Source: a virus. From it: a stretch of 64,000 nt of DNA. Every line of letters starts with the position of its first letter. The first letter of the stretch is position 1. The DNA lies in IMG/VR virus record IMGVR_UViG_3300025012_000031, positions 32,001-96,000 of that record; one strand, written 5' to 3'. This document shows, piece by piece, positions 20,532-26,094 of this stretch. The position numbers and the translations under genes were made by a program. A model generated the notes under the pieces. It saw only the letters and a list, made by a program, of their open reading frames with translations, was not told the DNA's origin and did not search any database.

Positions 20532-21257
20532 TTAAAGCAGGCTGTTTATAAGAATCCGATTCTTATGCGATTCTGATATTTTCTTCTTTGTTTCAACAGA
20601 GTGTGTTTTTCCTTTATGTGATTGGCTATTTTTCTGACAAAAATCTACCGAACGTTTTATACCTCTTAATGGTGATATTTGTCCCATAAGAGAATTACTA
20701 ATTTTTTCTCTTTGTTCATCGGAACAAGGAACCCCCTTGTTGTAACCACCCGTTAGCGATCCACCTCTTTTAGCGCCGATAATCAATGAATCGGTTCGTA
20801 AACGACCAAGAACCCATCCTTCCGACAAAAGTTTTTCCATTTCTATTCCTTTTGTCATACAAGAATTATTTCCATCATTTAACCAACGGCGATCTTTAGA
20901 TGCATCAGAACATTTTTGTCGTTTCTGATCTTTGCATGGTATTCGTCTAACGTGATTATTATCACCAAGCAATCGTTCCTTTATATATTTTTCTCTAACC
21001 CATTTATATGATCTGCTATTATACTTTCCAAATGATGTCATCATAAGTGCTGCATGTAACATTCCACCACCGTAGATCTTGGCTAATAAAAGATGACATA
21101 TTAAATGTTCTCTGAGAAACAGTTTTACGAGATTTTCTTTTTTATTAGACCCACCTAAGCTTCTTGGAACTATATGATGTATCTCACACATTTCCTGTTG
21201 TGTTGCTCTTTGTTTTGCATTAAGTATAATGTTATCATAAGCTTGTTGATAATTCAT
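20532..21257 (-). mobile_element. free-standing HNH homing endonuclease with NUMOD3 repeats
   Basis: EIHHIVPRSLGGSNKKENLV...EHLICH; HSVETKKKISESH; late promoter. Confidence 0.9.
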
Positions 21258-21316
21258 AATTTTAACTCCCACTTTATTTTTATTTATAAAGTGGGAGTTA
21301 AAATTGGTGCAGCGTG

Positions 21317-21433
21317 TTATCCGATCAAAGATAACATCCCGCAAGCAGCACCGGCTGCAATTTCGGCGTCGGTTGCCACGGCGAGGGCGAAATCAAAACC
21401 AGCTTCTTCCAATTGTTCCTGAATTGCTTCCAT
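21317..21433 (-). CDS. 38-aa peptide resembling RlmN/Cfr C-terminal methyl-carrier segment (not in ORF track)
   Basis: AAGGAGG RBS; MEAIQEQLEEAGFDFALAVATDAEIAAGAACGMLSLIG; AACGML versus RlmN AACGQL. Confidence 0.8.
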   Translation of the reverse strand: MEAIQEQLEEAGFDFALAVATDAEIAAGAACGMLSLIG

Positions 21434-21884
21434 CTTGGTACCTCCTTAACAACATACTTCATAGTTGACGGTGGCGGCGGGATTGGCTTCTTTGAATGCT
21501 TCAGCCAATAATTCTCTATCGTCTTCTTGATCAAAAGAAAATCTTTTACCATTCACAATGACGGCAAACCCATCGTAGTAATCTTCAATCTTGATATCCA
21601 TTTCTTTTCAACCTTTAAAATTGAATTTTAACAAAATCATCATCACATGTCAATACAAATTTACTCGGTGTAAACATTATTACCCATAAAAACAATACCG
21701 CCGATGAATACTGAGCAGGCAGCATCGCGCATCGCAATTTCTCCACCCTCAATTGAATACACTATCGCGCCGGCTATACGCACCGATTTATTCAAATGGC
21801 CCGTTGATAATATCTCTATGCTGTTATCAGTGAACCCATTTGCAATGAGAATAGAATTTGCGTCACTGATTAATTTGTCACTGA

Positions 21885-22328
21885 TCATTGGCCCAGTTTC
21901 CTTTTGAGAATTTCTCCAGCCACCTTCGCATCGTAATTTCCGTTGAGCTGACGCTTCAGTTCACCCATGATGCTTCCCATGTTCTTCATCGTCGGTTTCT
22001 CGAATGCCATGAGAATGATATCAATCGTCTGCTCAAGTTCGACACCAGAAACTTGGGCCGGGAGGAACGAGTTGATAATCTCGAGCTCTTTGTTTAACTT
22101 CAACAGAACGGATGTTCCGGGTAGCACAAGAGCAATCGTCTCTTCTGTAGAATTCTTGAACTTCTTGAGGGCGGAGAGAACATCTTCAAGTGTCACCTCC
22201 CGAACTTCGTTCTTTGCCCGCATATCGATGTCAGACTTCAATGTCGTTAAAAGATTTGATTTGATGACATCTCTAGCAATGCGAGCCATCATACGTTCTT
22301 TTTCAATCTGTGTATATAGTTCGATCAT
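21885..22328 (-). CDS. GatB/YqeY domain protein
   Basis: ELEIINSFLPAQ, MKNMGSIMGELK, YDAKVA. Confidence 0.85.
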   Translation of the reverse strand: MIELYTQIEKERMMARIARDVIKSNLLTTLKSDIDMRAKNEVREVTLEDVLSALKKFKNSTEETIALVLPGTSVLLKLNKELEIINSFLPAQVSGVELEQTIDIILMAFEKPTMKNMGSIMGELKRQLNGNYDAKVAGEILKRKLGQ

Positions 22329-22338
22329 TTTGTTCTCC

Positions 22339-23208
22339 TTAAAAGATAGCTTCTCCAACGAACCCATTGCGGAGTTGGTTGATGTCATAGACAAGGGTGT
22401 TCTCGCAAACATCAGACTTGCTGTGGTGGCGAGCATAAACCTTTGCGATATCCCCCCGTGAATTTGTCACAAGATAGTTAGCACAGCGGCATATATCATT
22501 TCCGCGACACCAATCTTTTGTCTTTACAAAATCCTGGAATCTGGTAAGGTCAAGGTCGGTGAATTTCACGCAGTTTTCTTTTGCATAATCGTTCACCGGC
22601 ATCAGTGTAACAAATCCGAAATCCATGATACCACGACTCATGAAGTGGGAGACATATTGTTGAACTCTCTCGGAGCTGTCAATGTAACCCAGGATGAGAT
22701 TGCAACTGAGATGGACCTTATTAAGATTCCCGTATTCAAAGATGTCGTCGATTTTATGCTTTGAATTGAAAACACAATTATTCAGAGAATCTTCATAATG
22801 ATGAACACTCATGGCAACACTATCAACCAAACTCACCGCATCGCCAAGAAGCTTCATGGCATCATACGATTGTGTATTGATAACTGTGTAGATATTTTTA
22901 TCATGCTGCTTGATGAATTCCAAACATCTTTTAATCGCTTCAACATGAAGCATCGGTTCGCCGCCGGTAAATGAGACTTTGTTTATTTTACATTGGGCGG
23001 CAATCATACAGAATGCATAGAAGAATTTGTAGAAATCAAAGGCCTTGGTTGCCACTCCGTGGAATGTACAGAATTCGCAATCACTAACACAGAAGTCAGT
23101 CATCCGAACGTAGATGTTAACCGCCGGCATTTCTTTCTTTTGACCCGGCTGACCATTAAGACCACAGAAGTCATTCGTTAGTTTGATCTCAACACCGCCG
23201 ATTTTCAT
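22339..23208 (-). CDS. radical SAM protein
   Basis: CVSDCEFC, SFTGGEP; extra C-terminal CRC...C. Confidence 0.9.
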   Translation of the reverse strand: MKIGGVEIKLTNDFCGLNGQPGQKKEMPAVNIYVRMTDFCVSDCEFCTFHGVATKAFDFYKFFYAFCMIAAQCKINKVSFTGGEPMLHVEAIKRCLEFIKQHDKNIYTVINTQSYDAMKLLGDAVSLVDSVAMSVHHYEDSLNNCVFNSKHKIDDIFEYGNLNKVHLSCNLILGYIDSSERVQQYVSHFMSRGIMDFGFVTLMPVNDYAKENCVKFTDLDLTRFQDFVKTKDWCRGNDICRCANYLVTNSRGDIAKVYARHHSKSDVCENTLVYDINQLRNGFVGEAIF

Positions 23209-23459
23209 TAGCACCGTCCATTCGAGGAAAGTACTTTGCTTGATCCGCTACATCCGTCGCTAAAAGTCGTGACCGATTTCTTTGCGCCGGGTGCCGAGGC
23301 ATCAGCGATCTGCTTCATTATTTCGTGGGCTGGCTTCGTGCACTCACCCTGAAGATACAACTCATTGAGCCGCGACTTGAAATCGGATACGGGCTTGCCT
23401 GCAGCAACAACCTTCTCGAGGCTTGCCATGAAAAATCGAATTTCTTCAAACAATGTCAT
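23208..23459 (-). CDS. 83-aa protein with Ser/Gly/Cys tail, coupled to radical SAM gene
   Basis: Ends TTFSDGCSGSSKVLSSNGRC; TAATG overlap. Confidence 0.7.
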   Translation of the reverse strand: MTLFEEIRFFMASLEKVVAAGKPVSDFKSRLNELYLQGECTKPAHEIMKQIADASAPGAKKSVTTFSDGCSGSSKVLSSNGRC

Positions 23460-23521
23460 ACGATGTTCCTTCCCTTGATGATACCTTCGCCCATGTTATT
23501 GGCAATAGAAATATCATTCAT
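23456..23521 (-). pseudogene. orphan duplicate of the C-terminus of radical SAM 24402..25202
   Basis: MNDISIANNMGEGIIKGRNIV aligns with ESDITRKNNIGPGIIKGNNLV. Confidence 0.8.
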
Positions 23522-24356
23522 TGTTATCAGTGATGCAAATATCATTAATGTATTCGCATTTCCAACCCTTGTAATTATCACGTTTTCCTTTAGCAACCGC
23601 CCCTAATAATTGCGGTGATTTAATATTATGTTCTATACAAAAATTATTAAAACCACCCCTAAAAATAAAAACCTCATTATTCGGCGAAATCACCTTCCAC
23701 CGATTTGCATGTGTTGCCTTATCTCCTGTTAATTTTTTGCGGGCCACACTTATTATTTTTCTTACTTCGGGTGTATGTGTTTTGCCGAAGAAAGGATGAT
23801 CTTCACCAGCCCTTTTACCTTTTCTACTTATTGAAATTTTTTCTAAAGATTGTTTTGAGTGCTTCTTTCCAAAGAAATGGTTATCTTTGCCCATCATACG
23901 TAGAGATCTTTCAAGACGTTCTATTAGAGGTCTCTTTGTTCCCATCTTTACGGCACGTTGCTTTTCTCTTGTGATTGGTCCTGGAATATTTCCTTCACCA
24001 CCACCCGTTAAGTTTGTTAACGGTCCAGTTTTTAAATCTAACCGCCCTATTATACTTATACATTGGCTCTCAAAACATAGAGCGGACTCATTTGTATTTT
24101 TTGGTATTATCAAAACATAAGGTTCTTTATCTTCTTTTAATATACGAACAATCTTATTGATCTTAAGATTGTTCCCATCATATATTTTTAATTTTTTAAT
24201 TCTTTTACGAGCATGTTTTAGATGACACATTGCTCGTCCGATTCCGCCACTACCCTTACCAACATAAATTGGTTCAAATAGGAAGCACAAATCAATTTCC
24301 GGATATTCATACTTTCCCGGGCATCTTGGGTCAAGATAAAAATAAGAATAAAACAT
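23514..24356 (-). mobile_element. GIY-YIG-like homing endonuclease with NUMOD3
   Basis: YFYLDPR...PIYVGKG, PLTNLTGGGEG, FFGKKHS; TATAAATA upstream. Confidence 0.88.
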
Positions 24357-24401
24357 GAGACCTCCACTGTTTTATTCTTATTTATAAAACTAACCCCAAT
24401 A

Positions 24402-25202
24402 CTAGACTAAATTGTTTCCTTTGATGATTCCGGGGCCAATGTTATTTTTTCTCGTGATATCAGATTCATTCACGGGTGAAAGTTTAATGAAGAAGTATTT
24501 TGGGTCAAAGTATTTCTTCAGCTTTTCAATGTCAAAATCCTTTTCATCGACGAGTGTCAGGTTTACAGTCGTCTTCTGATTTGATCTTGTGCGAATCTGG
24601 CCGAGCTCTTCAATGGTCATAAGGTTGTTGATAGGAATAAGTTCTTTGCGGCGGTCTTCGTCAAGGCTGTGTAGTGAAATCTGGAGGGTTGTGTTGCCCT
24701 CGATCCAAGAGAAGACACTACCACGAATACCTACCGTAGAGATGTAGTGATGTGTGTTCGGAATTGTTCCTGTGATCGCCTGCATCGCGAAACGAACATT
24801 CTCAAGATTGAGGAACGGTTCGCCCATGCGAGTCCAATTGATCTTGAACTCTTTTGCTTTTGTTGGGTCGGGCGGATAGATGTTCTCTGCATTCTGTTTG
24901 TCAAGAATAAACTTAACCTGCGACACCATTTCATAGGAAGTAAGATTGCGCCACCCATTGAGCTTTCCAGTTGCACAGAACTTACAACCAACGGGGCAAC
25001 CACTCATACAGGAGACACCCAGTAACCATCTTTCACTCCTATCACCCAAACAACAATCATCGAGTAGATTCTGTTTCCTCCCGATTGCATCCTTTGTATA
25101 AAATGGCAAGAACGTATCAGTGACCTCGACGGGGTACCCATCAGGTGTTGATAATGCATAAACAACACCGTTGGCAAATTCCCTTTTCCTAAGTTCTTTC
25201 AT
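24402..25202 (-). CDS. RlmN/Cfr-like radical SAM protein lacking the C-terminal AACGQL segment
   Basis: VSCMSGCPVGCKFCATG, RNLT..EMVSQV, MGEPFLN, ISTVG, LQISLHS..R..LIP. Confidence 0.88.
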   Translation of the reverse strand: MKELRKREFANGVVYALSTPDGYPVEVTDTFLPFYTKDAIGRKQNLLDDCCLGDRSERWLLGVSCMSGCPVGCKFCATGKLNGWRNLTSYEMVSQVKFILDKQNAENIYPPDPTKAKEFKINWTRMGEPFLNLENVRFAMQAITGTIPNTHHYISTVGIRGSVFSWIEGNTTLQISLHSLDEDRRKELIPINNLMTIEELGQIRTRSNQKTTVNLTLVDEKDFDIEKLKKYFDPKYFFIKLSPVNESDITRKNNIGPGIIKGNNLV

Positions 25203-25216
25203 TCCGTTTCTCCTCT

Positions 25217-25984
25217 TTATTGATTATAGTGATAAACCGTCCACCCGTTGCACCATTTGTCTTTTCTTTTATTACATGCAATCAATCTCATCGATTTATG
25301 ACTTAAATTATTATCAATACAGAATTTTCTAAATGCGCCGATAATAATAACTTCTTCGTTGTTCCTATTTTTAAAAACCCATTTTTTTGCTGATGGGTTT
25401 TTTTCACCAGTCATACTTAAAGAAACTCTTTGTTTTACATCGTCCCTTTTCAGAGGATTATTAGTTTTCATTAGGATTGATCGCCGTGTTCGTTCTTCGT
25501 CAGATATATTTGTTCTGTCTATGATTCCGGCGCAAATCAATTCCTTCATTTTGATAGATATCCGTGACTTCGATTCAGTAGTATGAAATGATTTTCCTTC
25601 TTTTGAATTGCTTATATTTTTCAGTGTTTCTTCTGTGTGTTTCTTTCCGAAGAACGGATTTCCATTTCCCATATATTTCAAAGATCGTCTTTTACGACTT
25701 TCTTCTGATATGAGTGTATTCCCACCTTCACCACCGTTTGTTAAATTATAACCGATGTTTTTATTATTTGCTTTTAACTTATCAATCCAAAAAATTTCTC
25801 TTTCGTTTAATTCTTTTTTTGATTCACATTTTTCTAAAGTTTCTTTATGAAAATTATCAGTGCCGTATTTTAATACCAATTTAGAAATAATAATACCGGA
25901 ACCGAAGTATCCTGGCCTATCAAGCGAATCTTGGCCTACATAAATTTTACCATTTCTTTTATCTGTTATTTTATAAATTATCAT
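25217..25984 (-). mobile_element. GIY-YIG (Seg-like) homing endonuclease
   Basis: IIYKIT..NGKIYVG, YFGSG, GYNLTNGGEG, NUMOD3. Confidence 0.92.
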
Positions 25985-26094
25985 GATTGTCCTCCTCTTT
26001 ATTTTTATTTATAAAGAGGAGGACAATCATACATAAAAGTTAGTTCAATAGCAAGAATGAGATTATATCAAAAAGTGATGATGATGTAAATAGA

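Follow-up and report, generated by a model that had tools for sequence, protein, structure and literature searches.

The window analysed here is a stretch of 64,000 nucleotides (nt) from IMG/VR virus record IMGVR_UViG_3300025012_000031, a 155-kb phage record from groundwater with an estimated completeness of 65%. Between 20.4 and 26.1 kb of this window every gene lies on the minus strand (Table 1), and two of these genes are our subject: one encodes a protein of 266 residues with a radical S-adenosylmethionine (SAM) domain of the RlmN/Cfr type, which we refer to as the core or rSAM1, and the other, whose start lies 2968 nt beyond the core stop, is an open reading frame (ORF) of 38 codons, which we refer to as the peptide. 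Gene names in the window are based on matches to Pfam, NCBIfam and PHROGs, and the genome holds a single copy of each of the two genes. Our comparisons of sequences and models give good support to the view that the core and the peptide are the halves of a genuinely split RlmN-like protein, in which the peptide must act in trans. The peptide ORF and its AAGGAGG ribosome site are present as given in the original prediction, and the action in trans proposed there is well supported by what is described below: conserved synteny and strict co-occurrence of the genes, homology colinear with fused relatives, a modelled fold, and purifying selection.

RlmN is the C2-methyl synthase for A2503 of 23S rRNA and A37 of tRNA, Cfr is the C8-methyltransferase for A2503 of 23S rRNA, and the two are the textbook case of methylation by way of a protein-bound methylcysteine and a covalent enzyme-RNA intermediate; to our knowledge both of their cysteines (Cys118 and Cys355 in RlmN, Cys105 and Cys338 in Cfr) are regarded as indispensable. 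Structures of RlmN are PDB entries 3RF9/3RFA, 4PL1, 5HR6/5HR7 and 6FZ6, and that of Cfr is 9P0P. The core has the CxxxCxxC cluster motif of such enzymes at residues 69-76 (as GCxxxCxFC), in a ...VSCMSGCPVGCKFCATG context, together with RMGEP, ISTVG and QISLHS. It is nevertheless a poor match to the existing family models: TIGR00048 (RlmN, NCBIfam) matches at model positions 102-262 of 355 only and with 76.4 bits (cut-off 290), and the Cfr models give 45-49 bits (cut-offs 468-550), all below threshold. A search with a core profile against solved structures identified RlmN and Cfr only, with E-values of 4e-18 to 4e-13. An RlmN-type enzyme that stops before the C-terminal segment had been predicted here, and both the motifs and the partial coverage by TIGR00048 agree with this; the core ends ahead of the C-terminal helix, strand and Cys loop, so that the methyl-carrier Cys is not on its chain. 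The N-terminal accessory domain (RlmN residues 1-79) is likewise absent, as structural alignment begins with model residue 1 at RlmN residue 80. The core is matched by over 2100 clusters (90% identity), of which the best 120 all have lengths of 255-287 residues. In some relatives an intein with a LAGLIDADG endonuclease interrupts the core directly after CxxxCxxC (L059:4759-6561, P0207); the intein-bearing core of L059 is a 600-residue ORF with matches to Intein_splicing, Hint and LAGLIDADG_3.

A counterpart to the missing C-terminus was identified by way of a set of fused phage relatives (L062-L078, ~295-300 residues, here 'mini-RlmN'), which are single chains ending in a helix, a strand and a ...GGGCGQL loop. 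Over their full length these can be aligned with RlmN and Cfr, which puts their Cys on that of AACGQL. In profile-profile comparisons the core covers columns 36-238 of the fused relatives (E-value 9e-41) and the peptide covers columns 257-292 (E-value 0.0012), Cys on Cys, with a Cys loop two residues longer than theirs; the equivalent of RlmN C355 and Cfr C338 is located on the separate peptide, as its Cys31. For structural prediction we used the relative L047, in which core and peptide share a reading frame that is broken by one TGA only, and modelled the read-through product of 304 residues under translation table 4 (TGA=W). The AlphaFold model (mean predicted local distance difference test, pLDDT, of 84; predicted template modelling score, pTM, of 0.86) places the peptide helix (259-276) and strand (279-282) at pLDDT ~92, and its residues 1-303 span residues 80-361 of E. 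coli RlmN (5HR6_A; Z 25.3, root-mean-square deviation 2.7 Å over 258 residues). The match to Cfr (9P0P) was weaker (Z 18.8), and no unrelated radical SAM enzyme exceeded Z 14.3. Judged from the ends of the aligned ranges, the peptide Cys lies within one residue of Cys355.

The association between the two genes was examined in a close family of 62 loci, made up of loci from 80 fetched from IMG/VR, loci of cultured phages and the window. The peptide was found in 60 of these, always on the same strand as the core, at 2-66 nt downstream (40 loci), 262-5635 nt downstream (19 loci) or upstream (1 locus); L027 has no peptide within 6 kb of its core, and in the other locus lacking one, L012, the contig stops 271 nt past the core. 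Among the closest cultured relatives, Kehishuvirus 'tikkala' and Moorella phage MTATph1, an ORF of ~40 residues with ...AACGQL starts 2 nt and 15 nt past the core stop, respectively. When 50,697 phage records were searched the peptide was identified in eight, exactly the eight with a short core, and in none of the 50,689 others; in these eight, from phages of Bacteroides, Moorella, Pectobacterium, Yersinia and Vibrio, the core is matched over no less than 93% of the query, and downstream of it on the same strand lies the peptide in every case. The co-occurrence that had been named as a test of the pairing is found, then, in 60 of 62 loci and in all eight short-core records, far more than chance would give. 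Apart from a few relatives of the endonucleases and of a small protein X, the only genes of the window's locus that recur across the 62 loci are the core, the peptide and a second radical SAM gene, rSAM2 (13 loci); the pair therefore moves as a unit through unrelated phage backgrounds.

Several features indicate that the peptide is a gene in its own right. There are 50 distinct DNA versions of it, in which the invariant residues are written with all of the codons available to them (six for Leu, four for each Ala and two for Cys); of its roughly 40 positions ten are invariant and four near-invariant, and purifying selection acts on both genes, core and peptide. The peptide gene has its own ATG, often with a strong ribosome site ahead of it, and ribosome sites of six bases precede the peptide in 14 of 49 loci vs the core in 1 of 49. 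We give practically no credence to the idea that core and peptide are made as one protein through read-through, frameshifting, ribosomal bypass, RNA splicing or protein splicing. A few relatives do have the peptide in frame, 9-30 nt past the core stop, as such a mechanism would need; however, frames 0, 1 and 2 relative to the core are taken by the peptide in 6, 11 and 14 of 31 non-redundant adjacent pairs, respectively, in-frame spacers often contain two or three stops, gaps extend to 5.6 kb, one peptide is upstream of its core, the start codon and ribosome site of the peptide are kept, and there are no intein halves, all 38 residues being alignable to the RlmN tail. The original prediction had judged fusion by read-through or frameshift implausible, and the use of all three frames, the up to three spacer stops and the gaps of 2 nt to 5.6 kb exclude both, and bypass too, as a general rule.

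Joined forms of the peptide do exist, with other partners. Scoring of 8000 candidates identified the peptide within 78 longer proteins, nearly all of them fusions to the product of the upstream gene (rSAM2, a small methyltransferase, a barstar-like protein, an SPFH/band-7 protein or a GIY-YIG endonuclease) and mostly with the peptide Met kept; in P0143 it is the C-terminus of the peptide that is joined, to a downstream M23 peptidase. The commonest natural fusion is that of methyltransferase and peptide (P0144, P0169), and on the sequences the fusions mirror the gene neighbourhood. Among the 78 longer proteins there was no true fusion of core and peptide, an absence that is weak with 8000 candidates scored. 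The only fusion protein that also holds a core, P0197, is frameshifted, and the candidate P0203 has an internal deletion.

The split is, on the sequence comparisons, old and stable. The halves are colinear with the single-chain relatives, endonucleases lie between or inside the halves in the window, and 40 of 60 relatives have the two genes adjacent with nothing between. A decaying full-length gene, broken by homing endonucleases and leaving the peptide ORF as a functionless remnant, might be expected to look in part like this locus, where three endonuclease genes lie in or beside the two genes and a relic of the core 3'-end is present. We nonetheless hold this to be very improbable, as the split is common to the more than 2100 clusters with their uniform length, is also found in loci without any endonuclease, leaves both genes under purifying selection, and was followed here by restoration of the disrupted end at each endonuclease insertion. 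One instance is the HNH element inside the peptide gene. In the groundwater sequencing run X1 an HNH-free form skips window positions 20545-21338 and has six other bases there instead, and the two alleles coexist in this one sample with depths of 86 (HNH-bearing) and 53 (HNH-free). The HNH-free allele ends in the consensus ...AACGQLSLL and the window allele in ...AACGMLSLIG followed by a stop, and the HNH ORF itself ends on the original last codons and stop of the peptide (...SLL). From these endings, the HNH element entered immediately behind the Cys-Gly codons, carrying with it a recoded tail of similar sequence. The conservation of the peptide gene is thus sufficient for it to serve as a homing site, and only repaired insertions persist; the window is a clean population-level case in which homing endonucleases enter a gene of 38 codons and repair it as they do so. 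A second joint in run X1 (24209/25957) has a short side and low depth and is probably due to similarity between the GIY-YIG genes.

The second cysteine of the RlmN/Cfr mechanism is missing. In the alignment of the core profile with RlmN and Cfr structures, core Gly62 falls on RlmN Cys118 (Cfr C105), and this position, seven before the first cluster Cys, is Gly in 62 of 62 loci. Both the Gly and a Cys three residues later had been pointed out for this core, and both are there; checking across relatives shows the loss of Cys118 to be family-wide and not a quirk of this phage, and the neighbouring Cys to be unconserved (Thr in 28, Val in 25 and Cys in 9 of the 62 loci). No other Cys is conserved in the core: several cores carry the three cluster cysteines and no more, 52 of 60 peptides have a single Cys, and some complete core and peptide pairs have four cysteines in total. 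The fused phage relatives have kept both the Cys at the Cys118 position and the fused Cys loop. In a wider survey, with a core profile against a library of 1.84 billion proteins, we compared the 92 near-full-length representatives among the best 150 matches. Those with Cys at the Cys118 position mostly have a fused Cys loop (34 vs 5 without), those with another residue have one in 19 cases and lack it in 8, and all 26 with Gly have no fused loop, so that Gly at this site and a detached or absent loop coincide without exception. As 19 representatives combine another residue with a fused loop, loss of Cys118 is not unique to the split family. Among the 26 Gly-type representatives is a second, more distant group of RlmN-like proteins of ~270 residues (P0255, P0266, P0273, P0279, P0283 and others), which stop right after the last strand and have no Cys loop. 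The fused loop of the 19 with another residue reads ...SNCGQ; proteins of this kind (P0272, P0280, P0290, P0298, P0304 and others) are ~300 residues long, have Ile, Asn or Met in place of Cys118 and are, by their sequences, a further branch that manages without a resolving Cys.

In RlmN and Cfr, Cys118 is indispensable for resolving the covalent adduct of enzyme and RNA, and C118 mutants stay cross-linked (PMC9692996, which reviews the parts played by C118 and C355); the titles of PDB 5HR6/5HR7 are consistent with a cross-linked C118-mutant RlmN. The reading we lean towards, as somewhat more probable than the alternatives taken together, is that core and peptide form a two-subunit class A enzyme in which the peptide serves as a re-usable arm in trans and the product leaves by a non-canonical release. 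The core would hold the [4Fe-4S] cluster and SAM through CxxxCxxC, and the helix and strand of the peptide are modelled to dock on it and complete the RlmN catalytic fold, with a flexible Gly/Ala loop placing the only Cys of the peptide at the Cys355 site. By the mechanism of RlmN and Cfr, one SAM would S-methylate this Cys, the 5'-deoxyadenosyl radical from a second SAM would convert the S-methyl to a methylene radical, and this radical would attack an sp2 carbon of the target, by analogy that of an adenine in RNA. With Gly fixed at the Cys118 site and no further Cys conserved, the resulting thioether adduct could not be broken in the way of RlmN; product would be released by a different route, such as another base, water or an outside thiol.

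A number of points weigh against this two-subunit enzyme. The hhalign probability for the peptide is 20% only, though its position is exactly as expected, and a peptide profile, which is too short for HMMER, found two chance-level matches among PDB sequences and not RlmN. The Cys loop of the L047 model has a pLDDT of only 57-62, values that are expected for a mobile loop, and as a single chain the model leans on what AlphaFold knows of RlmN, so that it speaks for compatibility and is not proof of binding. Lacking the N-terminal RNA-binding domain of RlmN, the enzyme would have RNA as its target by analogy only; more broadly, what points to binding, methylation and product is sequence, modelling and analogy. 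We found no substitute for the indispensable Cys118 (model coordinates were not inspected), and catalytic turnover would thus be an assumption. Lastly, the absence of core and peptide fusions despite tiny spacers hints that the separation is itself selected, which fits other readings better.

Foremost among these is that the peptide is consumed. It would then be a single-use molecule, the end product being its Cys joined through a methylene bridge to a nucleotide or to an adenine in the nucleic acid of host or phage, and separate encoding of the Cys loop would let the core swap a spent peptide for a new one and so turn over. The invariant Gly in 62 of 62 cores and the pairs with four cysteines in all would suit such an end point, as would the 26 Gly-type representatives with a detached or absent loop, the lack of a true core and peptide fusion despite spacers of 2-66 nt and, as a weak hint that peptide is made in excess, the bias in six-base ribosome sites (14 vs 1 of 49). 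That C118-mutant RlmN remains cross-linked (PMC9692996; titles of PDB 5HR6/5HR7) would also be in keeping. On the other hand, the 19 representatives that lack the Cys and keep a fused loop show that its loss needs no detachable peptide; the peptide helix and strand look integral to the modelled fold, which would argue for tight binding; and there is a single peptide gene per genome. We know of no natural peptide-nucleic acid conjugate of this kind, and this too counts against the idea. We regard it as unlikely, at a chance of perhaps one in a handful, and worth keeping in mind since, if true, it would amount to a natural, enzyme-made conjugate of peptide and nucleic acid.

The distance between core and peptide in the window had been described as three kb and several genes; this is correct for this phage, and does not hold as a native spacing, adjacency being usual. 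The gap is secondary, homing endonuclease genes and an optional cassette having driven the two genes 3 kb apart. It contains a GIY-YIG gene with its own late promoter, X and rSAM2, a YqeY-like gene and two small ORFs, and the decayed core 3' end behind the GIY-YIG gene is the signature of an endonuclease cassette that brings a replacement gene end. The optional cassette consists of X and rSAM2, which by sequence look like a phage pair of precursor and maturase for a peptide that is ribosomally synthesized and then modified post-translationally (RiPP). Proteins of the X type are of variable length, and nearly all have a D-[PG]-C-x(9-13)-C tail, on whose second Cys the chain terminates; rSAM2 has four invariant cysteines besides its cluster motif. 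Of 21 viral loci found with rSAM2, 18 or more have core and peptide as well; L104 (the contig of L006) excepted, the genes follow each other there as core, rSAM2, peptide, and a Cys-terminated X ORF was detected ahead of rSAM2 in most of the loci with all three genes; within the set L088-L106, L094 and L103 have X and rSAM2 without core or peptide. In a quick tree of the cores the X-rSAM2 layout needs at least three changes and is spread over several core lineages, so it was either ancestral and then often lost or gained repeatedly.

This nesting raises the question of whether the peptide, and X with it, are rather substrates or products of radical SAM enzymes in a RiPP-like system, with the core recruited as a peptide modifier that has no nucleic-acid target. 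A core without the RNA-binding N-domain of RlmN would fit this, as would the position of X and rSAM2 between core and peptide over several core lineages, the Cys-x(9-13)-Cys tail of X, the four extra invariant cysteines of rSAM2, such as are found in peptide maturases with auxiliary clusters, and the natural fusions of the peptide to rSAM2 and to the methyltransferase. However, conservation of the peptide extends from end to end and takes in the strand that would complete the barrel, unlike in a variable RiPP core; about 80% of the close-family loci are without X and rSAM2; the peptide is also fused to unrelated genes, in line with fusions that mirror the neighbourhood; and the core has its three cluster cysteines only and none for an auxiliary cluster. 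We consider a RiPP-like role improbable, more so than consumption of the peptide. An AlphaFold model of the natural rSAM2-peptide fusion P0156 left the peptide undocked at pLDDT 34-52 and is uninformative on whether rSAM2 acts on it.

The slot occupied by X and rSAM2 holds other genes in six loci, namely a third radical SAM gene and a class I methyltransferase of ~150 residues (L004:7208-9096, L011:6786-8001). Within 5 kb of the core there is a nicotinamide mononucleotide (NMN) adenylyltransferase-Nudix gene in 17 of 62 loci and a nicotinamide phosphoribosyltransferase gene in 14 of 62 (e.g., L004:2906-3964, L005:8827-10209). Nicotinamide adenine dinucleotide (NAD) contains adenine, and this proximity may reflect a functional link or just the accessory-gene regions of large phages. 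The YqeY/GatB-C-like gene of the window is at this place in none of the other loci; the YqeY-type domain in GatB is tRNA-associated, so that by analogy this neighbour is a weak hint of tRNA. The T4-type late-promoter word has 12 copies in the window vs 2.9 expected. A megablast search of the region against phage records gave no match, and there is no RNA run among the listed sequencing runs that contain this phage.

Table 1. Genes and sequence features of the split RlmN-like locus, in window coordinates
Feature	Position	Strand	Remarks
GIY-YIG endonuclease gene	25217-25984	-	Directly upstream of core; late promoter 26006-26013
Core subunit rSAM1, 266 residues, RlmN/Cfr-type radical SAM domain	24402-25202	-	
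GIY-YIG homing endonuclease gene	23514-24356	-	After core; TATAAATA late promoter 24379-24386
Decayed duplicate of the last ~20 codons of the core gene (~65-nt relic)	23456-23523	-	Downstream of GIY-YIG gene
Small protein X, 83 residues, helical N-terminal part and Cys tail	23208-23459	-	
rSAM2, second radical SAM enzyme, 291 residues	22339-23214	-	
YqeY/GatB-C-like protein	21885-22436	-	Particular to the locus version of this phage
Two small ORFs, 75 and 51 residues, no assigned function	21446-21888	-	
Sigma-70-like promoter match	21625-21653	-	Ahead of 51-residue ORF and peptide
Shine-Dalgarno AAGGAGG	21441-21447	-	7 nt upstream of peptide ATG
Peptide subunit, 38 residues: helix, beta strand, Gly/Ala-rich loop with single Cys31	21317-21433	-	
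HNH homing-endonuclease element (ORF 20532-21344)	20545-21338	-	Inside peptide gene; brings replacement tail and its own late promoter
T4-type late-promoter word TATAAATA	21281-21288; 24379-24386; 26006-26013	-	Directly upstream of all three endonuclease genes

In our literature search no publication came up on an RlmN-like phage enzyme that is split or lacks Cys118, and the co-occurrence in eight of eight cultured phages, the rule of Gly with no fused loop, the near-obligate nesting of X and rSAM2 and the endonuclease polymorphism in the peptide gene are what this window adds. In a very large phage family (more than 2100 clusters, with hosts from Bacteroides to Vibrio, Yersinia and Moorella) one Cys has been moved to a peptide of ~40 residues and the other removed. 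Either a new route of adduct resolution exists or the adduct is the product, both of which would change the view of this chemistry, and the members in cultured phages of Pectobacterium, Yersinia and Bacteroides make both alternatives directly testable. The family may mark a phage strategy that acts on RNA, DNA or nucleotides.

Compared with known systems, the pair resembles RlmN in its predicted catalytic fold (Z 25), in GCxxxCxFC, MGEP and STxG, and in an ...AACGQL Cys loop after the last strand. It differs in that the Cys loop, helix and strand are a separate gene product, with a loop two residues longer than in the fused relatives, that Cys118 is an invariant Gly, that the N-domain (1-79) is absent, and that the score is far under the family cut-off. 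With Cfr it shares the class A radical SAM fold and motifs (Z 18.8; E-value 4e-13); Cfr, unlike the split system, has Cys105 and Cys338 on one chain, and nothing at this locus suggests a Cfr-like role in antibiotic resistance. The fused 'mini-RlmN', more distant phage relatives, are also phage-borne, also lack the RlmN N-domain, have 30-36% identity to the core, and have C-terminal 40 residues that align to the peptide. They differ from the split family in being one chain with the Cys118-site Cys kept and the loop fused, and a long, fully supported branch lies between the two in the core tree. RiPP systems, too, have a short conserved peptide gene beside a radical SAM gene, and here a precursor-like X and rSAM2 are often nested; in contrast to what RiPP maturases act on, however, this peptide is homologous to the missing C-terminus of the enzyme itself, and the core is without an auxiliary cluster or recognition domain. 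Phage enzyme genes split by homing endonucleases into two working ORFs are known, such as nrdA of a T4-like phage (PMC3045599; reviewed in PMC2988022), and our locus is like these in having two ORFs that need reassembly, endonucleases at or in the junctions, and repaired or duplicated gene ends. Unlike fragmentation of the nrdA type, the split described here is of ancient date and runs through the whole family, and in most of its members no endonuclease separates the halves; the small half, of only ~40 residues, carries the putative catalytic residue, and a second catalytic residue was lost alongside the split.

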